The translations under genes and the position numbers were made by a program. From the sequence record OQ507919.1: a DNA stretch of 40,953 nucleotides, one strand, 5' to 3'. The DNA comes from Escherichia phage vB_Ec_Tarrare. Under the pieces are notes generated by a model. That model saw only the letters and a program-made list of their open reading frames with translations. It searched no databases and was not told where the DNA came from. Shown here in pieces: positions 106-40,873 of the stretch (position 1 is its first letter; the number at the start of each line of letters is the position of its first letter).

Positions 106-141
106 CCTCAAGGTCATCCTGATGGGTGGCCTTTATGATTA
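106..141 (+). promoter_or_regulatory. RNase III-type processing hairpin (R0.5-like)
   Basis: cctcaaggtcatcctgatgggtggcctttatgatta; the imperfect stem aaggtcatcc / ggtggcctt and the flanking ctcaagg ... cctttatgatta recur at seven other intergenic positions in the window. Confidence 0.5.
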
Positions 142-175
142 TCACTTAATACACTTTCTCAAAGGAATCATAAAG

Positions 176-1294
176 ATGAACCCAATGACCATCTCTGCTC
201 GTGTAGCCACCATCCAGAATCTGCCTATCTGTGAACTTGATAAGCGTCAAGGTCTTCTGGTAGCACTGGCGGCTGACATCGTGAACCACGAGACTGAGAA
301 CGGGAAACTAACGCAAGCCGAAGGTAACAACGCTCTCGAATCCATGCCATACTGGACAACTCTCAACGAGTACATGCGAGGCGCTGGATTCATTAAGCTG
401 GGTAACGGTCACTTCTCTGCTGCGTATCGTCACCACTTGTTGCCTCAGAAGGTCATCAAGGTTGGCTTTAAGAAAGAGGATTCAGGTGCAGCTTATGCGG
501 CCTTCTGCCGTATGCACCAAGGCAAGCAAGGCATCCCTACCATCCATGACATTCAACGTCACGCTGGCTGCTACACAGTGGTTCTTGATGAACTCGAAGC
601 ACTACCTCAGGACTATTGGGGTGATGTGGACGACAACCATGAAGTGTACGAACAGTTCGACATGGTGCGTGATGTAATCAACTACGAAGAATCACGAGAA
701 TGCTTTGGTAGTGAACTGATGGAAGACCTATACACTACCGCTAAGTCAATCCGCAAGTTCTTTGAGGGAATCGCTCGTTTCGATATGCACTCAGGTAACG
801 CGATGATGGATAAACACGGTAACTTGGTCATTACAGACCCTGTGTCTTTCAGCGCTGACGACGCACTACCTCAGGAAGACTTCATGGTAGACCCTGATGA
901 ACTCCTAAAGGAAATCGAACTGATCGCTGAGCGCCGCATGATTGAGCGCTGCAAGGCTCGCAAAGCTAAGCGTGACCCTAACGGTGAGTTCCGTAGAGGT
1001 CTGAAAGTACGCGCTAAGCGTAAGAAAGCGGCTGATAAGTGGGTTAAACATCTTGAGAATGAAATGCGTAAACGCCGCTTGGACGATAAGGCAGAACGTA
1101 GAGTCGAGAAGCGCGCTCGTCAGTGGTTCGGTACTTCAATTTGGCAAGCTCAGTGGCTGAATAACTTGGTAGGTGACTTCAAGGTTATCGAAGAACGCGC
1201 TGCGGCTGCGATGATGGTTCACGATGCGGTAGCTATCCAAGCTGGTCAAGCGCTGCATGTAGACAAAATTCTTGACGATATGTTCCAAGGCTGA
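176..1294 (+). CDS. 0.7: gene 0.7 protein kinase / host transcription shut-off protein
   Basis: 373 aa from the ATG at 176 (SD agga upstream; the ORF-track start at 56 is a TTG inside the upstream hairpin). MNPMTISARVATIQNLPICELDKRQG ... GFKKEDSGAAYAAFCRMHQG matches the T7 gp0.7 N-terminal kinase domain as recalled. Confidence 0.9.
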   Translation: MNPMTISARVATIQNLPICELDKRQGLLVALAADIVNHETENGKLTQAEGNNALESMPYWTTLNEYMRGAGFIKLGNGHFSAAYRHHLLPQKVIKVGFKKEDSGAAYAAFCRMHQGKQGIPTIHDIQRHAGCYTVVLDELEALPQDYWGDVDDNHEVYEQFDMVRDVINYEESRECFGSELMEDLYTTAKSIRKFFEGIARFDMHSGNAMMDKHGNLVITDPVSFSADDALPQEDFMVDPDELLKEIELIAERRMIERCKARKAKRDPNGEFRRGLKVRAKRKKAADKWVKHLENEMRKRRLDDKAERRVEKRARQWFGTSIWQAQWLNNLVGDFKVIEERAAAAMMVHDAVAIQAGQALHVDKILDDMFQG

Positions 1295-1303
1295 TAGTCT
1301 TAT

Positions 1304-1337
1304 CTTACAGGTCGCTCCTAATGAGTGGCCTGAATAG
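1304..1337 (+). promoter_or_regulatory. RNase III-type hairpin upstream of gene 1 (R1-like)
   Basis: cttacaggtcgctcctaatgagtggcctgaatag; stem aggtcgctc / gagtggcct, same architecture as the other processing sites. Confidence 0.4.
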
Positions 1338-1368
1338 ATACGATTCACTAACCCAAACGAGGCACTAA

Positions 1369-4023
1369 ATGAACGCAGTAATCAACGTACAAAAGAACGA
1401 CTTTTCTGACATTGAACTGGCTGTAATCCCTTTCAACACACTGGCAGATCACTATGGTGAGAAGCTGGCTCGTGAACAGTTAGCACTTGAGCATGAGAGC
1501 TATGAGTTAGGCGAAAAGCGTTTCCTGAAAATGTTGGAGCGTCAAGTTCAGAACGGTGAACTGGCTGACAACGCTGCGGCTAAACCTCTGGTCGCTACTC
1601 TGCTGCCTAAGATGACCGCTCGTGTTAACGAATGGTTCGAAGAAGTTAAGGCTAAGCGTGGCAAGCGTCCTGTGGCCTTTCAGTTCCTGCAAACTGTGAA
1701 GCCTGAGGCTATCGCGTACATCTCTATCAAGTGCGCACTGTCTTCCCTGACTACCTCTGACAACGTGGCTGTACAAGGTGTGGCTGCTGTGATTGGCAAG
1801 GCTATCGAAGACGAAGCACGTTTCGGTCGTATCCGTGACCTAGAAGCGAAGCACTTCAAGAAGAACGTAGAGGAACAACTGAACAAGCGTGTAGGCCAAG
1901 TGTACAAGAAAGCATTCATGCAGGTTGTGGAAGCTGACATGCTCTCTAAGGGTCTGCTGGGTGGCGAAGCGTGGTCTTCATGGCACAAAGAAGACACTAT
2001 GCACGTAGGTATTCGTTGCATTGAGATGCTGATCGAGTCTACTGGTCTGGTTGTTGTTGAACGTCAAAACGCTGGCAACGCTGCGGCTGACTCTGAGGTA
2101 GTCTCTCTGGCTGATGAATACGCTGACATTATCAGCAAGCGCGCTGGTGCTCTGGCTGGTATCGCTCCAATGTTCCAACCTTGTGTAGTCCCTCCTAAGC
2201 CTTGGACGGGTATCACTGGTGGCGGCTATTGGGCTAACGGTCGTCGTCCTCTGGCTCTGGTGCGTACTCACAGCAAGAAAGCTCTGATGCGCTACGAAGA
2301 TGTTTACATGCCAGAAGTTTACAAGGCGATCAACCTTGCGCAGAATACCGCTTGGAAAATCAACAAGAAGGTACTGGCGGTAGCCAACGAGGTCACTAAG
2401 TGGGCTAACTGTCCGGTAGAGGATGTTCCGGCTATCGAACGTGAAGAGATGCCAATCAAGCCAGAAGACATTGACACTAACCCTGATGCACTGAAAGCGT
2501 GGAAGAAAGCGGCCTCCGCAATCTACCGTAAGGACAAGGCTCGCAAGTCTCGTCGCATTAGCTTAGAGTTCATGCTGGCTCAGGCCAACAAGTTCGCAAA
2601 CCACAAGGCGATCTGGTTCCCTTACAACATGGACTGGCGCGGACGTGTTTATGCGGTCTCTATGTTTAACCCGCAAGGTAACGACATGACCAAAGGTCTG
2701 TTAACGCTGGCTAAAGGCAAGCCAATCGGTAAGGAAGGTTTCTACTGGCTGAAAATCCACGGTGCTAACTGCGCTGGTGTTGACAAGGTTCCATTCCCTG
2801 AGCGTATCGCGTTCATTGAGAACAACCACGAGAACATTATGGCAAGCGCTAAAGACCCATTGAACAACACTTGGTGGGCTGAGCAGGATAGTCCTTTCTG
2901 CTTCCTAGCGTTCTGCTTTGAGTATGCAGGTGTGCAACATCACGGCCTGTCTTACAACTGCTCGTTACCTCTGGCTTTCGACGGGTCTTGCTCTGGTATT
3001 CAGCACTTCTCCGCTATGCTCCGTGACGAAATCGGTGGTCGTGCGGTTAACCTGCTGCCAAGCGAAACCGTTCAGGACATCTACGGTATCGTCGCTAAGA
3101 AAGTAAACGAAATCTTACAGCGTGACGTTATCAACGGTACAGAGAACGAACTGGTAACGACTGTAGACAAAGTGACAGGAGAAATCACAGAGAAAACTAA
3201 ACTAGGCACTAAGGAACTGGCGGGTCAGTGGCTGGCTTACGGTGTGAACCGTGGGGTAACTAAGCGCTCCGTTATGACTCTGGCTTATGGCTCCAAGGAG
3301 TTCGGTTTCCGTCAACAAGTGCTCGAAGACACCATTCAGCCAGCTATCGACTCCGGCAAGGGCTTGATGTTCACACAGCCTAACCAAGCTGCTGGGTACA
3401 TGGCGAAGCTGATTTGGGACTCTGTAAGCGTGACCGTGGTTGCTGCTGTAGAGGCTATGAAGTGGCTGCAAAGCGCTGCTAAGCTATTGGCTGCTGAGGT
3501 TAAAGACAAGAAGACTGGCGAAATCCTACGTAACCGTTGCGCGGTACATTGGGTAACTCCTGATGGCTTCCCTGTGTGGCAGGAGTACCGTAAGCCTGTA
3601 CAGACTCGCTTGAACTTGATGTTCCTTGGTCAGTTCCGTCTACAGCCAACTATCAACACAAACAAAGATAGCGGCATTGATGCACACAAACAGGAATCTG
3701 GTATCGCTCCTAACTTCGTTCACTCACAGGACGGTAGCCACCTGCGCAAAACTGTAGTGTGGGCTAACGAGAAGTACGGTATCGAGTCTTTCGCACTGAT
3801 TCATGACTCCTTCGGTACTATCCCTGCTGACGCTGGGAACCTGTTCAAAGCTGTACGTGAGACAATGGTAGATACCTACGAGTCTAACGATGTTCTGGCA
3901 GACTTCTATGACCAGTTTGCTGACCAGTTGCACGAGTCACAGTTGGATTCTATGCCTGTTCTGCCTTCTAAGGGCAACCTGAACCTACAGGACATCCTTA
4001 AGTCTGACTTCGCTTTTGCTTGA
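1369..4023 (+). CDS. 1: single-subunit DNA-directed RNA polymerase (T7 RNAP family)
   Basis: 884 aa; collinear with T7 RNAP, including the MNAVINVQKNDFSDIELAVIPFNTLADHYGE N-terminus and the C-terminal ...HESQLDSMPVLPSKGNLNLQDILKSDFAFA. Confidence 0.98.
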   Translation: MNAVINVQKNDFSDIELAVIPFNTLADHYGEKLAREQLALEHESYELGEKRFLKMLERQVQNGELADNAAAKPLVATLLPKMTARVNEWFEEVKAKRGKRPVAFQFLQTVKPEAIAYISIKCALSSLTTSDNVAVQGVAAVIGKAIEDEARFGRIRDLEAKHFKKNVEEQLNKRVGQVYKKAFMQVVEADMLSKGLLGGEAWSSWHKEDTMHVGIRCIEMLIESTGLVVVERQNAGNAAADSEVVSLADEYADIISKRAGALAGIAPMFQPCVVPPKPWTGITGGGYWANGRRPLALVRTHSKKALMRYEDVYMPEVYKAINLAQNTAWKINKKVLAVANEVTKWANCPVEDVPAIEREEMPIKPEDIDTNPDALKAWKKAASAIYRKDKARKSRRISLEFMLAQANKFANHKAIWFPYNMDWRGRVYAVSMFNPQGNDMTKGLLTLAKGKPIGKEGFYWLKIHGANCAGVDKVPFPERIAFIENNHENIMASAKDPLNNTWWAEQDSPFCFLAFCFEYAGVQHHGLSYNCSLPLAFDGSCSGIQHFSAMLRDEIGGRAVNLLPSETVQDIYGIVAKKVNEILQRDVINGTENELVTTVDKVTGEITEKTKLGTKELAGQWLAYGVNRGVTKRSVMTLAYGSKEFGFRQQVLEDTIQPAIDSGKGLMFTQPNQAAGYMAKLIWDSVSVTVVAAVEAMKWLQSAAKLLAAEVKDKKTGEILRNRCAVHWVTPDGFPVWQEYRKPVQTRLNLMFLGQFRLQPTINTNKDSGIDAHKQESGIAPNFVHSQDGSHLRKTVVWANEKYGIESFALIHDSFGTIPADAGNLFKAVRETMVDTYESNDVLADFYDQFADQLHESQLDSMPVLPSKGNLNLQDILKSDFAFA

Positions 4024-4028
4024 TGAAT

Positions 4029-4051
4029 TAATACGACTCACTATTGAGGAG
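4029..4051 (+). promoter_or_regulatory. phage RNAP promoter (phi1.1A-like)
   Basis: taatacgactcactattgaggag; T7 -17 to -1 consensus except T at -1. Confidence 0.8.
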
Positions 4052-4055
4052 TGAT

Positions 4056-4078
4056 TAATACGACTCACTAATGGGAAA
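4056..4078 (+). promoter_or_regulatory. phage RNAP promoter (phi1.1B-like)
   Basis: taatacgactcactaatgggaaa, in tandem 27 bp downstream of the first promoter. Confidence 0.8.
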
Positions 4079-4176
4079 CCTTAAGGGTCTTAGAGATTTA
4101 ACTTTAAGACCTTTAAGTTCTAATTTAAGATTTAATTTAAGATTACTAAGAGATTAACTTTAAGGAGACTTTAAGT
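4079..4176 (+). other. AT-rich region downstream of tandem promoters; candidate primary replication origin and leader of gene 1.1
   Basis: About 100 bp of low-GC sequence with reiterated tttaag / aatttaag / aactttaag units immediately after phi1.1A/B. In T7 the primary origin occupies this position. Confidence 0.4.
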
Positions 4177-4314
4177 ATGCGTAATTTTGAGAAAACTACT
4201 CGTAGCAAAGCACGTAACTGGACTTACGAAGAAGTCTACGGTAACAAAGAAGGTCGCAAGTTTAACAAGACTAAGCGTGACCGTTCTCATAAACGCAATT
4301 GGGAGGCTCAATAA
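4177..4314 (+). CDS. 1.1: gene 1.1 small basic protein
   Basis: 45 aa, MRNFEKTTRSKARNWTYEEVYGNKEGRKFNKTKRDRSHKRNWEAQ; close match to T7 gp1.1 as recalled; SD aaggag upstream. Too short for the ORF track. Confidence 0.8.
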   Translation: MRNFEKTTRSKARNWTYEEVYGNKEGRKFNKTKRDRSHKRNWEAQ

Positions 4315-4571
4315 TGGGACGTCTATACAGTGGAAACCTAAACGCATTCAAAGGTGCTTGCAATCGTCTCTATCAGATGGACTTTGCGGTAATCGTCAAT
4401 GAGTTCCACGATGCAATGTACCGTCAAGAATGCATGAAGGTACGCATAGAAGACCGAGCAGGGAACATAATCATACAGGACACCTTCTGTCACTATGACG
4501 TAGACGTCTTGTACAACACAGCCACCGCTTGGTTGAACGGTATGGCTGACCAGTTACAACACTGGAAGTAA
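4314..4571 (+). CDS. 1.2: gene 1.2 protein (inhibitor of host dGTP triphosphohydrolase)
   Basis: 85 aa from the ATG at 4314, overlapping the 1.1 stop (taATGg). MGRLYSGNL...QLQHWK matches T7 gp1.2 in length and sequence. Confidence 0.85.
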   Translation: MGRLYSGNLNAFKGACNRLYQMDFAVIVNEFHDAMYRQECMKVRIEDRAGNIIIQDTFCHYDVDVLYNTATAWLNGMADQLQHWK

Positions 4572-4591
4572 TTGAACTCACTATCGGGAGA
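4569..4591 (+). promoter_or_regulatory. phage RNAP promoter, divergent (phi1.3-like)
   Basis: taattgaactcactatcgggaga; the only candidate with C rather than T at -1 and with a weak -12 to -10 region. Confidence 0.55.
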
Positions 4592-4594
4592 ATG

Positions 4595-4622
4595 CTTAAG
4601 GTCGCTCACTGAGTGGCCTTAG
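4595..4622 (+). promoter_or_regulatory. RNase III-type hairpin (R1.3-like)
   Basis: cttaaggtcgctcactgagtggccttag; stem aaggtcgctcac / gagtggcctt. Confidence 0.5.
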
Positions 4623-4651
4623 TCGTTTAACCCTAACAGGAGACAATCATT

Positions 4652-5671
4652 ATGACTATCAAGACTAACCCATTCAAAGCTGTGTCTTTCGTAGAATCTG
4701 CCGTTAAGAAGGCTCTGGACAACGCTGGGTATCTTATCGCTGACGTTAAGTATGATGGTGTACGCGGTAACATTCTGGTCGATAACGTTTCAAATGCGCG
4801 CTGGCTCTCTCGTGTTTCTAAACCGATTCCGGCACTATCGCACTTGGACGGGTTCGACTCCCGCTGGCAGCGCCTACTGCGTGATGACCGATGCTTCTAC
4901 CCCGATGGCTTTATGCTCGATGGCGAGCTAATGGTCAAGGGCGTGGACTTCAACACTGGCTCCGGCCTACTTCGCACGAAGAACGTTAAGAAGAAGAACG
5001 AGCTACACGCTATCTATCACGATGGCGAAATGACAGACAAACTGTTCCGTCTGAACTCTAAGTTCCTTAGTGTTCGACTCTACGCAATCCTACCGATTCA
5101 CATTGTGGAATCAGGTGAGGACTTCGACGTTATGACATGCCTCATGCAAGAACACGTTAAGTATATGCTGCCTCTGCTGCGGGAATACTTTCCTGAAATC
5201 GAATGGCAAGCGGCTGAGTCTTACGAAGTGTATGACATGGTAGAACTCACTAAGCTGTACGAGAAGAAACGCGAAGAAGGTCATGAAGGTCTTATCGTTA
5301 AAGACCCATTAGGTCACTACCGTCGAGGCAAGAAGTCCGGCTGGTGGAAAATGAAGCCTGAGAACGAGGCAGACGGTATCATTCAAGGTGTTGTGTGGGG
5401 TACTGAGGGTTTAGCTAATGAAGGCAAAGTGATTGGATTTGAAGTGCTTCTAGAGAGTGGTCGCGTAGTTAACGCTTGCAACATCTCACGCGCTTTAATG
5501 GACGAGTTCACTAGCACGGTTAATACCGCTGCGGCTAAACACGAGGATGCTCCTTACATTGGGTGGGCTTGTCAGATTAGCTACATGGAAGAGACACCTG
5601 ATGGCTCTCTGCGTCACCCTTCCTTCGTTATGTTCCGTGGAACCGAAGATAACCCTACCGAAAAGATGTAA
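4652..5671 (+). CDS. 1.3: ATP-dependent DNA ligase
   Basis: 339 aa; carries the adenylation motif ADVKYDGVRG (KxDG) and is collinear with T7 ligase. Confidence 0.95.
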   Translation: MTIKTNPFKAVSFVESAVKKALDNAGYLIADVKYDGVRGNILVDNVSNARWLSRVSKPIPALSHLDGFDSRWQRLLRDDRCFYPDGFMLDGELMVKGVDFNTGSGLLRTKNVKKKNELHAIYHDGEMTDKLFRLNSKFLSVRLYAILPIHIVESGEDFDVMTCLMQEHVKYMLPLLREYFPEIEWQAAESYEVYDMVELTKLYEKKREEGHEGLIVKDPLGHYRRGKKSGWWKMKPENEADGIIQGVVWGTEGLANEGKVIGFEVLLESGRVVNACNISRALMDEFTSTVNTAAAKHEDAPYIGWACQISYMEETPDGSLRHPSFVMFRGTEDNPTEKM

Positions 5672-5678
5672 TACCCAA

Positions 5679-5708
5679 TGGCTCACCGAAAGGTGGGCCT
5701 TTTGCGTT
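5679..5708 (+). terminator. early (host RNAP) terminator TE-like hairpin plus U-tract
   Basis: ggctcaccgaaaggtgggcc followed by ttttgcgttt, immediately after the ligase stop, which is the position of TE in T7. Confidence 0.6.
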
Positions 5709-5709
5709 T

Positions 5710-5732
5710 CAATTCAACTCACTAATGGAGGA
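5710..5732 (+). promoter_or_regulatory. class II-type phage RNAP promoter
   Basis: caattcaactcactaatggagga; shares the recurring core aactcactaatggagga, whose +1 to +6 ggagga also serves as SD for the ATG 4 nt downstream. Confidence 0.5.
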
Positions 5733-5736
5733 CATT

Positions 5737-5940
5737 ATGGACTTACTGAATCCAGCTAACCCGCTCAATATGGTAAACCCTGCGTCACCTTGGTATCACG
5801 TATGGAACTCTGTACCTGAGGAATCACACACAGTGGTTACTGAACTTACCGCTGGAGAATCTTTCATTATCTACGGTATCGTAGGAGTGTTCTGCCTGAT
5901 GATCGCAGGTCTACTCTGGCTGATGCTAAGCGATATTTAA
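5737..5940 (+). CDS. small hypothetical membrane protein (gene 1.4/1.5-region ORF)
   Basis: 67 aa from the ATG at 5737 (the ORF-track start at 5725 lies inside the promoter). The C-terminal stretch FIIYGIVGVFCLMIAGLLWLML is a predicted transmembrane helix. Confidence 0.6.
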   Translation: MDLLNPANPLNMVNPASPWYHVWNSVPEESHTVVTELTAGESFIIYGIVGVFCLMIAGLLWLMLSDI

Positions 5941-5960
5941 TTAAACTCACTAATGGAGGA
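5938..5960 (+). promoter_or_regulatory. class II-type phage RNAP promoter
   Basis: taattaaactcactaatggagga. Confidence 0.6.
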
Positions 5961-5964
5961 CACA

Positions 5965-6048
5965 ATGACTTTCCTGATTATCATCATCACGATCGCTACG
6001 ATCTTTGTGTGCCTTAGCGACGACAATCATCCCGATGGTCATGCTTAA
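5965..6048 (+). CDS. 1.5: gene 1.5-like micro-protein
   Basis: 27 aa, MTFLIIIITIATIFVCLSDDNHPDGHA; hydrophobic N-terminus and a ...SDD..PDGHA tail as in T7 gp1.5 as recalled. Not in the ORF track because under 60 aa. Confidence 0.6.
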   Translation: MTFLIIIITIATIFVCLSDDNHPDGHA

Positions 6049-6068
6049 TAGAACTCACTAATGGAGGA
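6046..6068 (+). promoter_or_regulatory. class II-type phage RNAP promoter
   Basis: taatagaactcactaatggagga. Confidence 0.6.
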
Positions 6069-6072
6069 CAAT

Positions 6073-6333
6073 ATGTTTCGCTTACATTTCAACAAAAGCA
6101 TTAAGATGTTCACAGTTCGCCGCCAAGACCGCTCAATTGTATGCGCGAGCGAACGTCGAGCTAAACTTCCTATTCTTGGTAGTACAATACCTTTGGCACC
6201 TAGCGTCCACATCATCATCACTCGTGGTGACTTTCAGAAAGCAATAGACAAACAACGTCCGGTTCTTAGTGTGGCAGTGACCCGCTTCCCGTTCGTCCGT
6301 CTGTTAATCGAAAGAATCAAGGAGGTGTTCTGA
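6073..6333 (+). CDS. 1.6: gene 1.6-like protein
   Basis: 86 aa from the ATG at 6073; the conserved block [41 protein letters not shown] matches T7 gp1.6 as recalled. Confidence 0.7.
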
Positions 6334-6740
6334 TGGGACTGTTAGATGGTGCAGCGTGGGAAAAAGAAAACCCACCACTAAAAGGAGGCCATACATTGGC
6401 TTGCGATATTAACCGCTTTAATGACGATAGATACCCTTGTACCTGTAACGCTAATTCTTTCAAGGTTAGTGGTAAGAAAGCTACTGTAATCGCTACCGAC
6501 GAAATCGAAGGTGTACAGAAGCCGAGTCACTACTCGTTCTTTGATGGTATCGAAGCTATCGAGATCATTGCGCGGTCTATGACTCGCGAACAGTTTAAAG
6601 GGTACGTATTTGGGAATATTTTGAAGTACCGCTTACGTGCTGGTAAGAAATCCGAATTGGCATACGCTGAGAAAGACTTAGCGAAAGCCAACTTCTACAG
6701 TGAACTCTTTGAGAAACACAAGGATAAATGTTATGCATAA
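6333..6740 (+). CDS. 1.7: gene 1.7 nucleotide kinase homologue (short form)
   Basis: 135 aa. The N-terminus [15 protein letters not shown] and the C-terminal half [71 protein letters not shown] match T7 gp1.7, but a central segment of about 60 residues present in T7 is absent. Confidence 0.8.
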
Positions 6741-6879
6741 CTTCAAGTCTACCCCACCTTCTGACCATCTATCTGATAACTTCACAACGTGCTCAGAGTG
6801 GTGCCGTAAGATGTGGGAAGAAACGTTTGACGATGCGTACATCAAGTTGTATGAACTTTGGAAATCAAGAGGGCAATAA
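6733..6879 (+). CDS. 1.8: gene 1.8 protein
   Basis: 48 aa, [48 protein letters not shown]; near-identical to T7 gp1.8 as recalled; overlaps the 1.7 stop. Confidence 0.8.
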
Positions 6880-6880
6880 T

Positions 6881-7072
6881 ATGTCACATTTAGATACAGG
6901 TTCGCTTCGAGTGGACAACAAGAAGTTTTGGGCTACGGTAGAGACCGCTGCTCAATCGTTTGAGGTTCCTATCTACGCTACTGACTTAGACGATGCGTTA
7001 GAGCTAGCGGAGTGGCAGTATGTACCTGCTGGCTTCGAGGTCACTCGTATTCGTCCAGACGTTCGCGGTTAA
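6881..7072 (+). CDS. 2: gene 2 protein, inhibitor of host RNA polymerase
   Basis: 63 aa from the ATG at 6881, [63 protein letters not shown]; matches T7 gp2. The ORF-track start at 6728 is in frame but upstream of the real start. Confidence 0.85.
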
Positions 7073-7092
7073 TAGGACTCACTAATGGGGAC
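7070..7092 (+). promoter_or_regulatory. class II phage RNAP promoter (phi2.5-like)
   Basis: taataggactcactaatggggac, overlapping the gene 2 stop; the transcript would begin with the hairpin ggggacactcccc. Confidence 0.6.
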
Positions 7093-7133
7093 ACTCCCCG
7101 AATCACTCAATCATTACTTTAAGGAGACTCATT

Positions 7134-7829
7134 ATGGCTAAGAAGATTTTCACCTCTGCGCTGGGTACTGCTGAACCTTACGCTTACATTGCTAAACCTG
7201 ACTACGGCAACGAAGAGCGTGGCTTTGGGAACCCTCGTGGTGTGTACAAAGTTGACCTGACTATTCCCAACAAAGACCCGCGCTGCCAGCGTATGGTCGA
7301 TGAAATCGTGAAGTGTCACGAAGAGGCTTATGCTGCTGCCGTTGAGGAATACGAAGCTAATCCACCTCAGGTAGCTCGTGGTAAGAAGCCACTGCGCCCA
7401 TACGAAGGTGACATGCCGTTCTTCGATAACGGTGACGGTACGACTACCTTTAAGTTTAAGTGCTACGCTTCCTTCCAAGACAAGAAGACCAAAGAGACCA
7501 AACACATTAATCTGGTCGTTGTGGACTCTAAAGGTAAGAAGATGGAAGAAGTGCCTGTTATCGGTGGTGGCTCAAAACTGAAAGTTAAATACTCTCTGGT
7601 TCCTTACAAGTGGAACACTGCTGTAGGTGCAAGCGTTAAGCTGCAATTAGAATCCGTTATGCTGGTCGAATTGGCTACCTTTGGTGGCGGTGAAGACGAT
7701 TGGGCTGATGAAGTCGAAGAGAACGGCTATGTTGCCTCTGGTTCTGCCAAAGCGAGCAAACCACGCGATGAAGAAAGCTGGGAAGAAGACGACTCAGAAG
7801 AACAAGTAGACGAAGACGGAGACTTCTAA
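7134..7829 (+). CDS. 2.5: single-stranded DNA-binding protein
   Basis: 231 aa, MAKKIFTSALGTAEPYAYIAKPDYG..., with the acidic C-terminal tail ...EEDDSEEQVDEDGDF characteristic of T7 gp2.5. Confidence 0.95.
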   Translation: MAKKIFTSALGTAEPYAYIAKPDYGNEERGFGNPRGVYKVDLTIPNKDPRCQRMVDEIVKCHEEAYAAAVEEYEANPPQVARGKKPLRPYEGDMPFFDNGDGTTTFKFKCYASFQDKKTKETKHINLVVVDSKGKKMEEVPVIGGGSKLKVKYSLVPYKWNTAVGASVKLQLESVMLVELATFGGGEDDWADEVEENGYVASGSAKASKPRDEESWEEDDSEEQVDEDGDF

Positions 7830-8844: not shown

Positions 8845-8884
8845 ACCGAAAGGCGTCCCCTTTGTTCGCGTTGGAGGTTAAATT

Positions 8885-11192: not shown

Positions 11193-11477
11193 ATGATGAC
11201 TCAAGGTAAAGTATCTACAACCATCCGTCTGTCTGATACTGCTGACCAGTGGAACCGCCGAGTTCACGTCAACGTTCGCAACTCAAAGGCAACTATGGTT
11301 TACCGTTGGAAATCTCCATGCAGTAAGAAAGACCATACTCAGCGCATGACTCTTACAGAAGTACAAGCTGCCCGTTTAGTGGCTGCATTGACGAAAGCTG
11401 TAGGCAAAGCTACAGAAGGCGACGTTGAACGCCGTAATGAGTACATGGCTGAGTTCTTTACAGCTATCAGTGAGTGA
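11193..11477 (+). CDS. 4.5: gene 4.5 protein
   Basis: 94 aa; SD aggag upstream; position matches T7 gene 4.5. Confidence 0.7.
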   Translation: MMTQGKVSTTIRLSDTADQWNRRVHVNVRNSKATMVYRWKSPCSKKDHTQRMTLTEVQAARLVAALTKAVGKATEGDVERRNEYMAEFFTAISE

Positions 11478-11480
11478 TAA

Positions 11481-11514
11481 ACTCAAGGTCGCCTACGGGT
11501 GGCCTTTATGATTA
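11481..11514 (+). promoter_or_regulatory. RNase III-type hairpin (R4.7-like)
   Basis: actcaaggtcgcctacgggtggcctttatgatta. Confidence 0.5.
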
Positions 11515-11537
11515 TTATTCATTATAGGAGAATAACT

Positions 11538-15671: not shown

Positions 15672-15781
15672 TTGCAGTTCTTGGTGTTGGCTTGTGCGCT
15701 ATTGCTGTAGGCATGTTGGCGTATGGTCTGTGGGACTTAGCTCAAATCCTGCGAACACTGCACAAATACAACATTAAGTAA
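15659..15781 (+). CDS. 6.3: gene 6.3-like small membrane protein
   Basis: 40 aa, METVIAVLGVGLCAIAVGMLAYGLWDLAQILRTLHKYNIK; one transmembrane helix; overlaps the end of gene 6. Confidence 0.5.
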   Translation: METVIAVLGVGLCAIAVGMLAYGLWDLAQILRTLHKYNIK

Positions 15782-15785
15782 TAAA

Positions 15786-15840
15786 CTCAAGGCCCTTATT
15801 TAATACGACTCACTATTGGGAGATAGGGGCCTTTATGATT
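15786..15840 (+). promoter_or_regulatory. RNase III-type hairpin (R6.5-like) with promoter in its loop
   Basis: ctcaaggccc ... ggggcctttatgatt; the stem arms aaggccc / ggggcctt flank the phi6.5 promoter. Confidence 0.5.
15801..15823 (+). promoter_or_regulatory. phage RNAP promoter (phi6.5)
   Basis: taatacgactcactattgggaga. Confidence 0.9.
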
Positions 15841-15874
15841 ATTACTTTAAGATTTAACCTTAAGGGAGGCGATT

Positions 15875-34229: not shown

Positions 34230-34286
34230 TAACTTAACACTCAAGGAAAGACGTGTAGTCCACGGATGGACTCTCAAGGAGGTATC

Positions 34287-34499
34287 ATGCTATCTTTAGA
34301 CTTCAACAACGAACTCGTCAAGGCCGCTCCTATTGTGGGGACTGGTGTTGCCGATGTGACAACCAGATTGTTCTTTGGGCTGTCACTTAATGAGTGGTTC
34401 TACGTAGCCGCTATCGCCTACACAGTGGTTCAAATTGGTGCCAAGGTAGTCGATAAGATTATTGATTGGAAGAAGGCAACGAAGGAGATTGGAGAATGA
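34287..34499 (+). CDS. 17.5: holin (class II, gene 17.5)
   Basis: 70 aa from the ATG at 34287 (SD aaggagg); MLSLDFNNELVKAAPIVGTGVADVTTRLFFGLSLNEWFYVAAIAYTVVQIGAKVV matches T7 gp17.5. Confidence 0.9.
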   Translation: MLSLDFNNELVKAAPIVGTGVADVTTRLFFGLSLNEWFYVAAIAYTVVQIGAKVVDKIIDWKKATKEIGE

Positions 34500-34762
34500 G
34501 TGACAAGTCTTTAATCAAATTCCTAGAAATGTTGGATACAGAGATGGCTCAGCGAATGCTCATGGATTTACAGAATGACGAGCGCCGGACACCTCAACTG
34601 TACAACGCTATAGGTAAACTACTGGAACGCCATAAGTTCCAAATAGGTAAACTGACTCCTGATGAGAACATCTTGGGCGGTCTTGCTGCTGGTCTTGAAG
34701 ACTACAATAAGACGGTCGGAAAGGATGGCCTGATGGATGACGATATTTACACATTGCAGTGA
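34496..34762 (+). CDS. 18: terminase small subunit (DNA maturase A)
   Basis: 88 aa from the ATG at 34496, MSDKSLIKFLEMLDTEMAQRM...DDDIYTLQ; matches T7 gp18. Confidence 0.9.
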   Translation: MSDKSLIKFLEMLDTEMAQRMLMDLQNDERRTPQLYNAIGKLLERHKFQIGKLTPDENILGGLAAGLEDYNKTVGKDGLMDDDIYTLQ

Positions 34763-34764
34763 TA

Positions 34765-34799
34765 TACTCAAGGCCACTACAGCCAGTGGTCTTTATGGA
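34765..34799 (+). promoter_or_regulatory. RNase III-type hairpin (R18.5-like)
   Basis: tactcaaggccactacagccagtggtctttatgga. Confidence 0.5.
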
Positions 34800-34857
34800 T
34801 GTCATTGTCTACGCGATGGTGCATCTACGCGAAATCTGAGAAATGATGGGAGGATTT

Positions 34858-35298
34858 ATGTTACGGTTTTTACGTAGGCTCATCCCTTGGGTTGTCGCTG
34901 GGGCGCTATTCGGGTATGGATGGCACCTTGGGGCTGACTCTATGGATGCCAAATGGAAACAGGAGGTATACAATGAATACGTTAAGAAAACGGAAGCTAG
35001 AGCAACTACTCAGAAAGAGGTCGATGCGATTAGCAAGCGCTACCAAGAGGAGATTGCCTCTCTGGAGGGCAGCACTGATAGGATGCTTGATGACTTGCGT
35101 AACGATAATAAGCGGTTGCGCGTCAGAGTCAAGAATCTTAGTGCCACCTCAGGAGGTCTCTGTGGACGCGAGTCTGATGGTAGAGCCGAACTTGACGAGC
35201 GAGATGCTAAGCGTATTCTCGCAGTGACCCAAAAGGGAGACGCTTGGATTAAAGCTCTCCAAGACACCATACGTAAATTACAACAGAAGGAGAATTAA
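34858..35298 (+). CDS. 18.5: Rz-like i-spanin (inner-membrane spanin component)
   Basis: 146 aa from the ATG at 34858 (SD gggagg); N-terminal transmembrane helix LIPWVVAGALFGYGW and periplasmic coiled coil; matches T7 gp18.5. Confidence 0.9.
   Translation: MLRFLRRLIPWVVAGALFGYGWHLGADSMDAKWKQEVYNEYVKKTEARATTQKEVDAISKRYQEEIASLEGSTDRMLDDLRNDNKRLRVRVKNLSATSGGLCGRESDGRAELDERDAKRILAVTQKGDAWIKALQDTIRKLQQKEN
34973..35227 (+). CDS. 18.7: Rz1-like o-spanin lipoprotein, embedded in the +1 frame of 18.5
   Basis: 84 aa from the ATG at 34973 (SD aggagg); lipobox TIISGC and Pro-rich mature part; matches T7 gp18.7. Confidence 0.8.
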   Translation: MNTLRKRKLEQLLRKRSMRLASATKRRLPLWRAALIGCLMTCVTIISGCASESRILVPPQEVSVDASLMVEPNLTSEMLSVFSQ

Positions 35299-35299
35299 T

Positions 35300-36139
35300 A
35301 TGGCCCTACACGAAGTCAACCTGTGGAATTTCAATTCCCGCACACATTCGTCTCTCGACGTTGGAGCGCCTTACGGTGGCCTCTACTCTGGACGCATAGA
35401 CTTACCTGAAAGTTACCGAAAGTCTAAGATGTTCAAGGTTAGAGTTTCTGGAACACACGCTCTAGAGACCTACGCTAGCTATTCTGCTATGCTTACAGGA
35501 ATCGGAGGAACGTCGGTGTCAAACCTAAATGGTAGAGAAGCGATCATTGAGTTTAACACATCGTCCTCAACAAACGGGTTGCGAGGCATCTACTCCGTAG
35601 AGGGCGTGTTTGTTAGGGATTGGCATCCAGACGAAGCGTTGACAAAAGGTGCCGCCGAGATGTTCATAAAGCCGCATGGTGTAGACGAGTACGTTTGGAC
35701 TGGTTCTCAGTCTGTAGGTAACGGCTCAGAGTTAAACCTATTGTCCCTAAACGGGTTCTCTACCGATGTTGCCACTGGAGCCACTACCATTAACGCTGCG
35801 TCTCTTGTGGTGCTTCCTGCGGAGGTGAAGAGTAGAGGGCTGATCATTTCTGTAATCCTAGATGGCACTTATGACCAACAAGGGCCACATGAGATGAAGG
35901 TTCAGATACGAAGCGCTGATGGTAAGACGTTGCAACAATCTAGCCCATTGTATGTTCTGGACAAGAACGTCAAGAAGCTTACCGCAACATTTGCAGACTA
36001 CACCCTTGGTGTGTATGACGAAAGTAGTACCACTGGATTTAAGCTTGTATTTATCAATGATAGTACATCCAATATGTCACTGACTGGTGTACGAATCGTT
36101 GTTCAAAATATCTCTAATCCAGACTTCACACGTTCTTAA
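35300..36139 (+). CDS. hypothetical protein, no T7 counterpart (first gene of a two-gene late-region insertion)
   Basis: 279 aa ORF; SD aaggag 7 nt upstream of the ATG, which sits 1 nt after the Rz stop. Rich in S/T/G/N/V and apparently beta-rich; no signal peptide, transmembrane helix or catalytic motif recognised by eye. Confidence 0.8.
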   Translation: MALHEVNLWNFNSRTHSSLDVGAPYGGLYSGRIDLPESYRKSKMFKVRVSGTHALETYASYSAMLTGIGGTSVSNLNGREAIIEFNTSSSTNGLRGIYSVEGVFVRDWHPDEALTKGAAEMFIKPHGVDEYVWTGSQSVGNGSELNLLSLNGFSTDVATGATTINAASLVVLPAEVKSRGLIISVILDGTYDQQGPHEMKVQIRSADGKTLQQSSPLYVLDKNVKKLTATFADYTLGVYDESSTTGFKLVFINDSTSNMSLTGVRIVVQNISNPDFTRS

Positions 36140-36154
36140 AGAAGGAGAGTTAAA

Positions 36155-37267
36155 ATGTTAGTTACTCGAACGGCAACTTACACCGATTGGATATTCATGG
36201 CTGCTCACGCAAACGAGAGGGTCGATGACATTGGTCAAGGTCTCTTAGAGGGTCATATTTATTTCCGTTATGCCTATGACATGCTGAACGATGGTGACGA
36301 GGTAGTACGAGAGGTATCACATGTACATCTTAGCGATGGGTCAACATACCCTCTAGGAGAAGGAGTGTCCTCCGAAAAGATAGACATCACGTACCACGGT
36401 CTCACTAGTGATGGTAGCGTATACCTTGAGGTTAATGGACATAAGGGAATTGGTGTTAGTAGCATTACTCGTACCCTGACCATTCAATATGACGATGGGA
36501 AGGTTCCTGTTCTGGACACTGACCAACTCAAAGGGATTCTTTCAGAACTTCATGACAGCCTTGAGGCTAGTATGATTAATACCGCAAACGCTGTCAAAGA
36601 GGAACTGCGAGACGAGTTGGAAACCAAGGTGCTGGACGCCAAGGAGTCCTGCAACGAGGCTACCGAGGCTGTTAACACCGAGTTGACCGCCAAGATCGCA
36701 AATGAGAGTGGTCGCATTGATAGCCTAACGAGTACCCTTGTGACTGTTCAGGGTAACTTGGATACTACCATGAAGCGCGTTGGTAAAATCTCTCCCAATA
36801 TGGGTAAGTGGTCTTTCGGTCGATACACCATCAACTCGAAGCAGACCAACAACTTACTGGCTGCTGCGCCTACAGCGTTGGCGCCGGAAGGGTCTATCTT
36901 CACATATGATGATACCAACAAGGTCTTTAAGATGTCTGGAGGTGCTGCCCCAACAGACAGGATTCTGCGGGTTACGTTCACTACAGGGATTGACACGTTG
37001 AGTGCTGACTACCGAGGATACTTATCGTTCATGCTGCGAAACTCCAGTGGTGGAGTCTTGGCTAGCGACATGAGGTTCCTAAACATGGATGCTGGTCTTA
37101 CCCAACAACTGAGCGCCATACAGTTCAGCCTTGAGCTATACTTAGAGGCGTCTAAAGGTCATCCAGTATACAACTCAGGTATCCAGTTAGCTTTCCACAA
37201 CAGTGCTAACACGGCTCTTGCCATACTGTCCGGTGGTGTTGCAAGCTTCACCTTACTGACAGCTTAA
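36155..37267 (+). CDS. hypothetical protein with central coiled-coil segment, no T7 counterpart (second gene of the insertion)
   Basis: 370 aa ORF; SD aaggag 8 nt upstream. Residues ~121-210 (DTDQLKGILSELHDSLEASMINTANAVKEELRDELETKVLDAKESCNEATEAVNTELTAKIANESGRIDSLTSTL) look alpha-helical with a heptad-like pattern, flanked by beta-rich N- and C-terminal regions. Confidence 0.8.
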   Translation: MLVTRTATYTDWIFMAAHANERVDDIGQGLLEGHIYFRYAYDMLNDGDEVVREVSHVHLSDGSTYPLGEGVSSEKIDITYHGLTSDGSVYLEVNGHKGIGVSSITRTLTIQYDDGKVPVLDTDQLKGILSELHDSLEASMINTANAVKEELRDELETKVLDAKESCNEATEAVNTELTAKIANESGRIDSLTSTLVTVQGNLDTTMKRVGKISPNMGKWSFGRYTINSKQTNNLLAAAPTALAPEGSIFTYDDTNKVFKMSGGAAPTDRILRVTFTTGIDTLSADYRGYLSFMLRNSSGGVLASDMRFLNMDAGLTQQLSAIQFSLELYLEASKGHPVYNSGIQLAFHNSANTALAILSGGVASFTLLTA

Positions 37268-37288
37268 TTTAAATAAAGGAGGGACGCT

Positions 37289-39052
37289 ATGTCTTATACC
37301 CAAAGTAACCGCAATGCTCTCATTGTGGCTCAACTAAAGGGTGACTTCGTAGCGTTCCTATTCGTCTTATGGAAGGCGTTAAACCTTCCGGTTCCTACCC
37401 GTTGTCAGATTGACATGGCTAAGGTATTGGCGAATGGGGACAACAAGAAGTTTATCCTACAGGCTTTCCGTGGTATCGGTAAGTCATTCATCACTTGTGC
37501 GTTCGTTGTGTGGACGTTATGGCGTGATCCTCAGATGAAGATACTCATTGTGTCTGCCTCTAAGGAACGTGCTGACGCTAACTCCATCTTCATCAAGAAC
37601 ATCATTGATTTGCTGCCTTTCCTTGCTGAGTTGAAACCTCGCGCTGGTCAACGTGACTCTGTGATTAGTTTTGACGTAGGCCCTGCTAAGCCTGACCATT
37701 CTCCTAGTGTGAAGTCCGTAGGTATCACTGGTCAGTTGACTGGTAGCCGTGCTGACATCATCATTGCGGATGACGTTGAGATTCCGTCTAACAGTTCCAC
37801 TATGGGCGCTCGTGAGAAGCTCTGGACTCTCGTTCAGGAATTTGCTGCATTGTTGAAACCTCTGGAGACCTCTCGTGTTATCTACCTTGGTACGCCTCAG
37901 ACAGAGATGACTCTCTATAAGGAACTTGAGGACAACCGTGGTTACACTACGATTATCTGGCCCGCTCTTTATCCACGCTCTAAGGAGGAAGACTTGTACT
38001 ACAGCAACCGTCTGGCTCCTATGCTCCGTGAAGAGTACAATGAGAATCCAGAAGGTCTTGCAGGTACTCCTACTGACCCTGTACGATTCGATACTGACGA
38101 TCTTCGTGAGCGTGAGTTGGAATACGGTAAGGCTGGCTTCACTTTGCAGTTCATGCTTAACCCTAACCTTAGTGATGCCGAGAAGTACCCTCTGAGGCTC
38201 CGTGACGCGATCGTAGCGGCTCTGGACTTAGAGAAGGCCCCAATGCATTACCAATGGCTCCCGAACCGTCAGAACATTATTGAGGACTTACCTAACGTTG
38301 GTCTTAAGGGTGATGATCTACATACGTATCATGAGTGCTCCAGTAACTCTGGTCAGTACCAACAGAAGATACTTGTGGTTGACCCTAGTGGTCGCGGTAA
38401 GGACGAAACAGGTTACGCCGTGTTGTACACTCTGAACGGCTACATCTACCTAATGGAAGCTGGTGGTTTCCGTGAAGGTTACTCCGATAAGACCCTTGAG
38501 GCTCTCGCTAGGAAAGCCAAACAGTGGAAGGTTCAAACGGTTGTCTACGAGAGTAACTTCGGTGACGGTATGTTTGGTAAGGTGTTTAGTCCTATCCTTC
38601 TTAAACATCATAATTGCATCATGGAAGAGATTCGTGCTCGTGGTATGAAGGAAGTACGTATTTGTGATACCTTAGAGCCTGTCATGCAGACTCACCGCTT
38701 GGTTATCCGAGATGAGGTCATTAGGGCAGACTATCAGACTGCTCGTGATGCTGACGGTAAACATGATGTCAAATACTCGCTGTTCTACCAGATGACTCGC
38801 ATCACTCGTGAGAAAGGTGCTCTTGCTCATGATGACCGATTGGATGCCTTAGCGTTAGGCGTAGAGTTCCTACGTGAGTCCATGCAACTGGATAGCGTCA
38901 AGGTTGAAGGTGAGGTGCTTGCAGACTTCCTTGAAGATCACATGAGTCGTCCAACTATTGGCGCTCAGAGTATCATTGAGATGTCTTTAGGTGGTATCGA
39001 CTTGTACGCAGAGGATGAAGGCTGGGGTAACTCTCAGTTCATCGAATGGTGA
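37289..39052 (+). CDS. 19: terminase large subunit (DNA maturase B)
   Basis: 587 aa; ATPase and nuclease regions; collinear with T7 gp19. Confidence 0.97.
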
Positions 39053-39075
39053 CTTATGCATAGATAGTGCATAAG
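39053..39075 (+). repeat. perfect inverted repeat immediately after the terminase stop
   Basis: cttatgca-tagatag-tgcataag; 8-bp arms, 7-nt loop. Confidence 0.7.
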
Positions 39076-39133
39076 GATTCACTTTAGGCCACGGAAGGCC
39101 AATACCCTAAGTTGTTGAATAGACACGATAAAT

Positions 39134-39156
39134 TAATACGACTCACTATTGGGAGA
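39134..39156 (+). promoter_or_regulatory. phage RNAP promoter (phiOR-like)
   Basis: taatacgactcactattgggaga, between genes 19 and 19.5. Confidence 0.9.
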
Positions 39157-39298
39157 GGAGGGACTAAAGGTTACATATAGTGTACTGAATGCATAAACAT
39201 AAAGTGCATAAAGTATGCATACCTAATACCCTTAGAGGATGGTTGTTATATTGATATTAATACAACCTTAACTTAAGGAACAACATAAGGAGGCCATA

Positions 39299-39448
39299 AT
39301 GTTCCGCACAGTGTTGAACCTATTGCGGCATAGAGTGACCTACCGCTTTCTTCTGGTACTTGTTGCTGCCCTTGGGTTCTCATCTCTTACTACAGACCTC
39401 AGTACACTGGAGTCTACCGTTTGTTCTGTATTCACTTGTGTCGATTAA
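39299..39448 (+). CDS. 19.5: gene 19.5 protein
   Basis: 49 aa, MFRTVLNLLRHRVTYRFLLVLVAALGFSSLTTDLSTLESTVCSVFTCVD; near-identical to T7 gp19.5 as recalled; SD aaggagg. Too short for the ORF track. Confidence 0.8.
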   Translation: MFRTVLNLLRHRVTYRFLLVLVAALGFSSLTTDLSTLESTVCSVFTCVD

Positions 39449-39519
39449 GATAATGATCGAACGCTAAGCTCACCGAGGGATTCGAAGGTATGATTACATC
39501 ACACCATCTCATCCCTATA

Positions 39520-40010
39520 GAGTCAAGTCCTAAGGTTATACCTATAGGCCCTCTAATGGTCTATCCTAAGGTCTATACCTAAGGGTAGGCCATACCTATT
39601 GGCTACCTAGAGATAAGCCTAAGGAGGCTCCTAGAGAGGCCCTAAGGAGTCCTTTAAAATATACCATAAAAATCTGAGTGACTATCTCATAGTTTAAACA
39701 TTTGGATTTACCCCCATAGGGTCACTTCAAGTCCCATAAAGACATCCCCATCCTAAGGTTTCTACTCAAAGAGAGACCATAGGAGACCTTGAGAGACCAT
39801 AAAGAGGTGGGTAGTGTGGTACTTTGAGTTATCTATAAGTGTGTCTCTATGTGTTCCTATCTGTTATCACTCCTAAGGTATCCTCTTAAGGTCATATCCT
39901 AAGGTCATCTCTTAAGGTATCAACATAAGGAGGAGGAGACTACACTTAAAGTATATACATAAAGACCACATAAAGACCATACATAAAGTGTATACATAAA
40001 GATGCCTTGT
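39520..40010 (+). repeat. genome-end non-coding region with arrays of short direct repeats (cctaaggt / ccataaag / cataaagac units)
   Basis: No ORF of 60 aa or more; reiterated heptamer-like units such as tcctaaggt (at least 6 copies) and cataaaga (4 copies at 39950-40000), corresponding to the CCTAAAG / CATAAAGAC arrays inside and next to the T7 terminal repeat. Confidence 0.6.
39685..39877 (+). repeat. approximate single-copy terminal repeat / concatemer junction (physical genome ends)
   Basis: tctcatagt ... acccccataggg ... gtgtctctatgtgttcctatctgttatcactcctaagg parallels the T7 terminal repeat (TCTCACAGTGT...CCCCCATAGGGGG...GTCTCTCTGTGTCCCTATCTGTTACAGTCTCCTAAAG) as recalled. Boundaries are inferred. 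Confidence 0.3.
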
Positions 40011-40048
40011 AGTTAGCTATAGAGAGTTATCTCTAATCATGGTCTTAT

Positions 40049-40071
40049 TAATACAACTCACTATTGGGAGA
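40049..40071 (+). promoter_or_regulatory. phage RNAP promoter (phiOL-like)
   Basis: taatacaactcactattgggaga (A for G at -11), in the same relative place as T7 phiOL. Confidence 0.75.
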
Positions 40072-40104
40072 TACTCTATAGACTACTTAAAGAGGAGGGT
40101 TATC

Positions 40105-40548
40105 ATGTATCAAGGATTAACTATATCAAATGGTGTCTTAATAAGGGAGTCAACAGGTAAACCTTGTAAGACATTCTCTAACGGTAAATACCTAAGGATA
40201 AACCATAAAGGCCGGATGTATTACCTACACCGTGTCTTGTGGGAACTTACACACGGCTCAATACCTAAGGGTTACACTATAGACCATATAGACGGTAATC
40301 CTACAAATAACAATATTGACAACCTAAGGTTAGCCTCTTATAGTGAGAACAACATGAATCGGGTATCTACGGTAGACAATGGCCTACCTCAAGGTATCTA
40401 CTGGTGTAACTCTAAGAGTCGCTATGTGGCTCAGGTGGTAGCTCAAGGCGTTAAGAGAACAAAGACCTCAAAGAGCCTTGATGTAGTCACTGAGTGGGTT
40501 AAAGAGACACGAAAAGAGATTCATAAAGAATTTGCCATTAAGTGTTGA
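40105..40548 (+). CDS. HNH-AP2 homing endonuclease-like protein in the left-end leader
   Basis: 147 aa from the ATG at 40105 (SD aggagg); YTIDHIDGNPTNNNIDNLRLASYSENNMN is the HNH motif, with an AP2-like C-terminal half; paralogous in type to gene 3.8. T7 has no gene between phiOL and the A promoters as far as I recall. Confidence 0.8.
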   Translation: MYQGLTISNGVLIRESTGKPCKTFSNGKYLRINHKGRMYYLHRVLWELTHGSIPKGYTIDHIDGNPTNNNIDNLRLASYSENNMNRVSTVDNGLPQGIYWCNSKSRYVAQVVAQGVKRTKTSKSLDVVTEWVKETRKEIHKEFAIKC

Positions 40549-40573
40549 CAAGACGATTAAGTTAATACATAAT
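40545..40573 (+). promoter_or_regulatory. candidate host sigma70 early promoter
   Basis: TTGACA (40545-40550), 17 nt spacer, CATAAT (40568-40573). Confidence 0.4.
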
Positions 40574-40686
40574 GACAACCGTCAACGAGACGAGAGGTCT
40601 CCGAGAGTGACAAGACTACGAGTTATCACTTCGCCCTCATAAAGTCTCCAAGTAGCCACCTAGAAGGCATACGAAAATAACTAGGG

Positions 40687-40716
40687 TTGACAAGGTAACA
40701 CGAAGTAAGATAGAAT
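40687..40716 (+). promoter_or_regulatory. candidate host sigma70 early promoter (A-type)
   Basis: TTGACA (40687-40692), 18 nt spacer, TAGAAT (40711-40716); resembles the T7 A2/A3 promoters (TTGACA...GTAAGATA). Confidence 0.5.
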
Positions 40717-40837
40717 ACACCACAACAGCGAACGGGACGCTATACTCTCGGGTTCAGGACGGAGAGCCTTGTGTGGCTTGATGAAGTGGACATAGCGAAG
40801 GCACTAAACACCCAACGCTAAACACTTTGAATGATAA

Positions 40838-40873
40838 ACTCAAGGTCATCCTGATGGGTGGCCTTTATGATTA
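40838..40873 (+). promoter_or_regulatory. RNase III-type hairpin upstream of gene 0.3 (R0.3-like)
   Basis: actcaaggtcatcctgatgggtggcctttatgatta; 35 nt identical to the site at 107-141. Confidence 0.5.

Follow-up and report, generated by a model that had tools for sequence, protein, structure and literature searches.

The genome of Escherichia phage vB_Ec_Tarrare (record OQ507919.1) carries the same 35-nucleotide (nt) sequence on both sides of the anti-defence gene ocr (gene 0.3). Comparison with other phages gives good support to the view that both copies are the cores of T7-type ribonuclease III (RNase III) processing signals, orthologous to R0.3 and R0.5 of T7, with cleavage predicted at each. 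The explanation that best accounts for the data, with a probability of roughly 0.72, is that these are two such signals whose hairpin tops have been homogenised by copying, and that the 35-bp repeat they form may be prone to deletion. Elements of this kind have long been known, and T7 R0.3 and R0.5 are reportedly among the early RNase III sites described by Robertson, Rosenberg, Kramer and co-workers in the 1970s and by Dunn and Studier in 1983. It is the length of the identity between R0.3 and R0.5 that is unusual for this phage group. The window, meaning the whole stretch of DNA analysed, is the complete deposited record of 40,953 bp. It is T7-like, with DNA about 80% identical to that of the T7/phiA1122 group, and it is circularly permuted and has its terminal repeat in collapsed form; no overlap was found between the record ends.

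The repeated sequence, CTCAAGGTCATCCTGATGGGTGGCCTTTATGATTA, is present in exactly two copies, both on the plus strand and without a mismatch between them:

40839-40873, plus strand: repeat copy A (exact match), the core of the R0.3-like site, comprising the internal loop on both its sides and the upper stem with its UGAU loop.
107-141, plus strand: repeat copy B (exact match), the core of the R0.5-like site, the same 35 nt as in copy A.

The exact search of the record thus bears out the preliminary description, which had reported perfect 35-bp direct repeats. No third copy is found in the record even when three mismatches are allowed, and none of 100 dinucleotide-preserving shuffles matched the 35-mer. 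No other exact direct repeat in the record is as long, the runner-up being a 29-nt pair of phage promoters, and beyond the core the likeness persists imperfectly over 55 nt at 89% identity (repeat family D5).

Each core sits within a larger hairpin that is recognised by a covariance model of RNase III sites from other phages and whose flanks have counterparts in Yersinia phage vB_YenP_Rambo (OK042080), the closest relative of the early region available:

40827-40883, plus strand: full R0.3-like RNase III hairpin (covariance model 62.7 bits, E 1.4e-14), which folds and has flanks orthologous to those in Rambo.
95-151, plus strand: full R0.5-like RNase III hairpin (covariance model 65.9 bits, E 1.8e-15), with flanks that match T7 and Rambo R0.5.

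Both copies fold into the shape of T7 R0.3 and R0.5, in which two helices are separated by an asymmetric internal loop. The upper stem is the same in both, 10 bp of AAGGUCAUCC/GGGUGGCCUU capped by UGAU, and the internal loop has (A/C)CUC on its 5' side and UAUGAU on its 3' side. The lower stem of copy B, AGUGAUA/UAUCACU, includes the ocr stop codon TGA (100-102), just as the stop codon of the upstream gene lies in the R0.5 lower stem of T7, and the whole copy B site folds at -27.6 kcal/mol (z -3.4). The lower stem of copy A, UGAAUGAUAA/UUACCACUCA, appears only when the RNA is folded in short context. The two invariant motifs of the T7 sites, ACUCAAGG and CCUUUAUGAU, recur here: both copies contain ACUCAAGG on the 5' side and CCUUUAU^GAU on the 3' side (the caret marks the predicted cut), with copy B reading CCUCAAGG, and these columns are invariant in the 57 members of the family that were aligned.

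The family itself is large, the motif pair ACTCAAGG...CCTTTATGAT being common in T7-like viral contigs, where it occurs in at least 120 stretches. In 57 distinct sites the helices are 95% paired, against 28-51% when the partners are slid, and 12 of the 17 pairs show changes on both sides; none of 500 shuffles reached the observed values. For the covariance model 51 sites were used, all of them from other phages and among them T7 R0.3, R0.5 and R1.1; it contained no sequences from the window. All seven of its hits in the window are on the plus strand and correspond one-to-one with the RNase III sites annotated by the depositors of Yersinia phage Y. A scan of the whole window at the Rfam gathering thresholds gave no matches to any curated family. 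Both copies are intergenic, on the transcribed strand, and syntenic with the R sites of T7, Rambo and Yersinia phage Y. The assignment of the repeats to R0.3 and R0.5 hairpins, which had been proposed from the sequence of Tarrare itself, is thus upheld by the T7-like folds, the cleavage motif, the hits of a model derived from other phages and the syntenic positions.

As in T7, R0.3 follows the early promoters and precedes gene 0.3, and R0.5 follows the 0.3 block and precedes the next gene. Unlike T7, Tarrare lacks genes 0.4-0.6, so that R0.5 stands directly before gene 0.7:

176-1294, plus strand: gene 0.7 protein kinase, the next gene after the R0.5-like site; the protein matches WEU68247.1 of vB_Ec_Tarrare at 100% identity.

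Related kinases are found at 86% (P0002) and at 69-76% (P0003-P0006) identity to the Tarrare kinase. Rambo has the same order of R0.3, ocr and R0.5 with orthologous flanks, but differs from the Tarrare record in having a full-length ocr of 119 amino acids (aa) and an extra open reading frame (ORF) of 59 aa before 0.7.

The gene between the repeats is represented in the record by its two ends, since the break in the record falls inside ocr:

40903-40953, plus strand: the N-terminal 17 codons of ocr, MERNANAYYELLDSAVY, cut off by the record end and aligning to residues 1-17 of full-length Ocr.
1-102, plus strand: the C-terminal 33 codons of ocr and its stop, TIDLHDKAEEL...DEEDEE*, of the T7/Rambo type and aligning to residues 91 to the end of full-length Ocr.

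The bracketed gene is incomplete in the record, a point missed in the preliminary description: the first 17 and the last 33 codons are there, and about 73 central codons have no counterpart. The two fragments join in frame across the record ends, so that either the assembly lacks about 219 nt or ocr has been reduced by an in-frame internal deletion to a remnant of 50 codons. Full-length Ocr is an acidic protein of about 116-120 aa, for which only residues 1-17 and 91 to the end are present to compare. Residue 17 is Y in Tarrare and E in four full-length homologues, and the alignment does not decide whether the ends adjoin. The fused 50-aa Ocr gave no significant homologue in a homologue search, and its exact sequence was absent from the protein collection searched. 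The start-to-start distance of the two repeat copies is 221 nt if the record ends adjoin and about 440 nt if some 219 nt are missing, the distance in Rambo being 433 nt. That the repeats lie on either side of an Ocr-like gene, as first described, therefore holds on a circular reading with the fragments taken as one gene, in agreement with the synteny of Rambo and T7, but not on the linear record. The first 12 residues of Tarrare Ocr are the same as the N-termini of the Ocr proteins of K30 and vB_VIPECLMC06. With an N-terminus of the Klebsiella-phage (K30) type and a C-terminus of the T7 type, the Tarrare ocr looks chimeric.

The region upstream of R0.3 contains host-type promoters that parallel A1-A3 in T7 and phage Y, and the processing of transcripts that start there can be predicted from homology to T7:

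40545-40573 and 40687-40716, plus strand: strong sigma-70-like early promoters (11 of 12 matches each), with a third at 40316-40344.
40868/40869, plus strand: predicted RNase III cut CCUUUAU^GAUUA, forming the 5' end of the ocr mRNA.
136/137, plus strand: predicted RNase III cut forming the 3' end of the ocr mRNA, with its hairpin kept, and the start of the 0.7 mRNA.

Host RNA polymerase would start at the promoters between about 40316 and 40716 and read through R0.3, ocr, R0.5, 0.7, R1 and gene 1. Each signal would then adopt the fold described above, with its lower stem, asymmetric internal loop and UGAU-capped upper stem of 10 bp, and host RNase III would nick it once, on the 3' side of the internal loop, between 40868 and 40869 and between 136 and 137. 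The monocistronic ocr mRNA would begin pGAUUACCACUCAUUAAC... and end in a protective hairpin, ...GGCCUUUAU-OH, and the 0.7 mRNA would begin pGAUUAUCACUU.... An mRNA is considered to be stabilised when a single cut leaves a hairpin at its 3' end (PMC6993053). The predicted cut splits the repeat, with 5 nt (GAUUA) going to 5' ends and 30 nt to 3'-terminal hairpins. Processed 5' and 3' ends would be identical, as had been proposed, but this is not special to the 35-nt identity: common mRNA ends are general, because every site of the class has the same cleavage motif. The common ends of T7 early mRNAs were described in the 1970s. The T7 cleavage positions, which we take from Dunn and Studier (1983) to be 890 (R0.3), 1468 (R0.5), 3138 (R1) and 5887 (R1.1), are internally consistent, as 890, 1468 and 5887 each fall on U of CCUUUAU^GAU in the T7 sequence and 3138 falls on U of UGAAU^AGG.

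The predicted ocr leader contains a further structure:

40877-40892, plus strand: small hairpin in the processed ocr leader, CUCAUU-AACU-GAUGAG, a weak fold at -5.3 kcal/mol (z -1.5).

This hairpin competes for pairing with the lower stem of R0.3, and the Shine-Dalgarno sequence GAGGA lies right next to its 3' arm. On this model the leader hairpin could link RNase III cleavage to the translation of ocr.

The promoter at 40316-40344 (11 of 12 matches) lies inside an ORF for an HNH endonuclease of 147 aa (WEU68294.1 of the same phage, 40105-40548). This ORF has a phiOL-like phage promoter (40048-40070) on one side and the early host-type promoters on the other, in a region that has no annotated gene in T7.

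The identity of the two cores is best understood against the range of likeness found among other phages. Among all pairs of neighbouring sites less than 2.5 kb apart in the fetched loci, the longest exact runs are 26 nt in an IMG/VR contig (L009), 21 nt in Rambo, 20 nt in IME15 and one other, and 10 nt in T7 and its close kin. The 35-nt identity of Tarrare is thus the extreme of a continuum and not a separate kind. T7 R0.3 and R0.5 share exact runs of only 8 and 10 nt and have different upper stems, whereas the Rambo pair is nearly alike, with exact runs of 13 and 21 nt separated by a 2-nt loop indel. The top common to the Rambo sites, GGTCGCTC...GAGTGGCC, differs from that of Tarrare.

These comparisons point to an exchange of sequence between sites. 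The left flanks of Tarrare and Rambo agree at 15 of 16 positions for R0.3 and 14 of 16 for R0.5, against 10 of 16 between paralogous sites. The hairpin tops behave in the opposite way, agreeing at 16/16 positions within Tarrare and 15/17 within Rambo, and at only 11-12/17 between the phages. Because flanks group by orthology and tops by genome, the more likely history is one of concerted evolution of the hairpins, most simply by short-tract gene conversion or template switching. The Tarrare top, GGTCATCC..GG(G)TGGCC, resembles that of R0.3 in Klebsiella phages, whose leader and ocr N-terminus are also Tarrare-like. The resemblance of the top gives a weak hint that R0.3 may have been the donor and R0.5 the recipient.

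Similar exchanges may have involved more distant sites. The top stem-loop of the R1.3-like site of Tarrare, GGTCGCTCACTGAGTGGCC (4597-4615), is identical to the top of Rambo R0.5 (locus L004, 1281-1299), and the top of Tarrare R0.3/R0.5 resembles the R1 tops of T7 and phage Y. Hairpin tops seem to come from a small pool that has been shuffled among sites and genomes. IME15 (locus L005) has three early RNase III-type sites, at 801-832, 1334-1365 and 2199-2230, which divide a 0.3 gene of the S-adenosylmethionine hydrolase type, a block of 0.6A and an ocr-like gene, and 0.7. The first and third of these share the stem GGTCGTTC/GAGCGGCC and the middle one differs, so that in this phage it is non-adjacent sites that are alike.

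Several points weigh against this explanation as a whole. The covariation set was chosen by the motifs TCAAGG...CCTTTATGA, which makes four upper-stem pairs invariant by construction. The lower stem of R0.3 has two mismatches, and the minimum-energy fold in an 81-nt context favours the competing small hairpin. The argument for conversion draws mainly on two genomes, Tarrare and Rambo, and partly on IME15, and the R0.3 and R0.5 of T7 itself differ from each other. The exact 35-mer had no match in the IMG/VR or JGI metagenome scans, and no deletion variant or close relative was retrieved. Finally, the middle of ocr is absent from the record, and the bracketed gene may not be intact.

The first alternative is that the identity reflects a recent duplication, in which an ocr cassette with one RNase III site was inserted within a resident site, making the repeat a footprint of acquisition rather than of later homogenisation. 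RNase III sites do bound variable early cassettes in T7-like phages, and the genes between the conserved sites differ among IME15, Rambo, T7 and Tarrare. Import is also suggested by the 3' half of R0.3, the leader and the ocr N-terminus, which are 80-84% identical to Klebsiella-phage (Przondovirus) sequence, next to a C-terminus of the T7 type. Yet each site is flanked on both sides by sequence orthologous to that at its Rambo counterpart, R0.3 or R0.5, so that the two-site arrangement predates the split between Tarrare and Rambo and no fresh duplication need be invoked, and Rambo shows the same within-genome likeness with a different top. Such an insertion is, therefore, an unlikely origin of the repeat.

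A function of the RNA might instead hold the two cores identical, through selection on recognition by RNase III or on mRNA stability. This fits the outer parts of the repeat, CTCAAGG and CCTTTATGA, which are invariant across the family, but not the 16 nt between them, which vary freely and widely among the 57 members, with compensatory changes in the pairs; RNA function thus does not dictate the identity. Other sites of working type in Tarrare, such as 11470-11524, have different tops, and the experimentally known R0.3 and R0.5 of T7 differ, which makes selection of this kind a very improbable cause.

It is next to impossible that a single physical hairpin was counted twice because the record is broken between the copies. 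The break does fall between them, inside ocr, and about 219 nt of this gene are unaccounted for. However, the copies have different flanks, GAATGATAAA/CCACTCATTA and GAGTGATAGC/TCACTTAATA, each set with its own Rambo orthologue, and the record has no terminal overlap. Copy A, moreover, follows the promoters and precedes the ocr start, and copy B follows the ocr stop and precedes 0.7. An assembly duplicate is effectively refuted by the flanks, their distinct orthologues and the lack of terminal overlap.

The notion that the hairpins are intrinsic transcription terminators has GC-rich stems followed by UUUAU in its favour, as well as an identical 22-nt top, AGGTCATCCTGATGGGTGGCCT, in a terminator-like hairpin after a 795-aa ORF of a soil metagenome contig (L128, 4094-4115), but it was rejected as having almost no likelihood, as the stem is followed by TTTATGATTA with no T-run, a scan of 39400-40953 (which covers copy A) finds no terminator-like site on the plus strand, the homologous T7 elements are read through and cleaved, and the soil match, the only one obtained for the 22-nt top and on an unrelated contig with no phage context, was judged to be due to chance.

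The repeats may also serve as a substrate for deletion of the gene between them, as first proposed, and it is plausible that recombination could remove ocr in this way. Spontaneous deletions in the T7 early region are said to have been found at short direct repeats by Studier et al. in 1979, and deletion frequency in T7 reportedly climbs steeply with repeat length (Pierce, Kong and Masker in 1991). The arrangement in Tarrare resembles that of these spontaneous deletions, in which direct repeats surround non-essential early genes, including 0.3, and the ends join at the repeat. The homologies at T7 deletions are 7-10 bp and mostly lie inside genes, whereas the Tarrare repeat is 35 bp long and lies in regulatory hairpins, and its deletion is a prediction only. 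A 35-bp repeat would be expected to be a far better deletion substrate than homologies of 7-10 bp. T7 readily loses early genes, and where its deletions have been sequenced the joints lie at 7-10 bp of homology (PMC8923235 Table 2; PMC6042481).

Recombination or slippage between the repeats would take out ocr precisely, and a single hybrid hairpin would remain, with a junction reading GAATGATAAACTCAAGG...TTATGATTATCACTTAATAC. The hybrid hairpin folds canonically at -21.4 kcal/mol, and processing of the 0.7 mRNA would, therefore, survive the deletion. In this respect the predicted deletion is unlike the documented T7 deletions, as it would remove ocr cleanly and restore a processing site. Loss of ocr can be advantageous, because Ocr triggers the PARIS defence system: ocr was inactivated in 15 of 16 T7 escapers on an EcoKI-negative host, and the PARIS escapers carried point and frameshift mutations (PMC9122126). 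A kinase-based search for the locus in IMG/VR returned only two distant loci. A natural ocr deletion was also considered on the basis of a coordinate shift between phage Y and phiA1122 and was rejected; the two differ only at the left end, and both keep a 0.3-0.7 fusion gene.

A more far-reaching proposal joins these elements, in that recurrent conversion would keep the repeats identical because this makes ocr a contingency locus, cleanly excised at high frequency, and the break in the assembly would possibly reflect a mixed population. This combination is improbable. If it were true, a lysate would always hold ocr-minus genomes in which the hybrid RNase III site works and expression of 0.7 is intact. 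The ocr-minus genomes would escape abortive-infection systems that sense Ocr, such as PARIS, and the ocr-plus genomes would handle hosts with type I restriction-modification and BREX systems.

The remaining five hits of the covariance model extend the series of RNase III-type sites over the genome, with counterparts in T7 and phage Y:

1309-1331, plus strand: R1-like site (17.7 bits, weak), within the wider interval 1296-1350.
4588-4632, plus strand: R1.3-like site (18.6 bits, weak).
11470-11524, plus strand: R4.7/R3.8-like site (65.4 bits).
15774-15849, plus strand: R6.5-like site, with a phage promoter in the apical loop as in T7 (50.5 bits).
34755-34811, plus strand: R18.5-like site (39.6 bits).

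The phage promoters at 4028, 4055, 15800, 19092, 20136, 24492, 32226, 39133 and 40048 read TAATACGACTCACTATTGGGAGA. The strong class III-like copies consistently have T just before GGGAGA, where T7 has A.

The practical consequences of these findings are modest, and the current understanding of T7 biology is unchanged. For annotation, R0.3, R0.5 and five further sites have been placed in a record without them, and the break of the deposited genome inside ocr has been flagged. For evolution, with flanks that follow orthology and tops that follow the genome, the pair offers a small, clean case of RNA-processing hairpins evolving in concert within a lytic phage. A 35-bp repeat around an anti-defence gene further predicts that ocr may be unstable in stocks, which is relevant to phage therapy and host range, as Ocr decides the outcome on type I restriction-modification and BREX hosts and triggers PARIS (PMC9122126).

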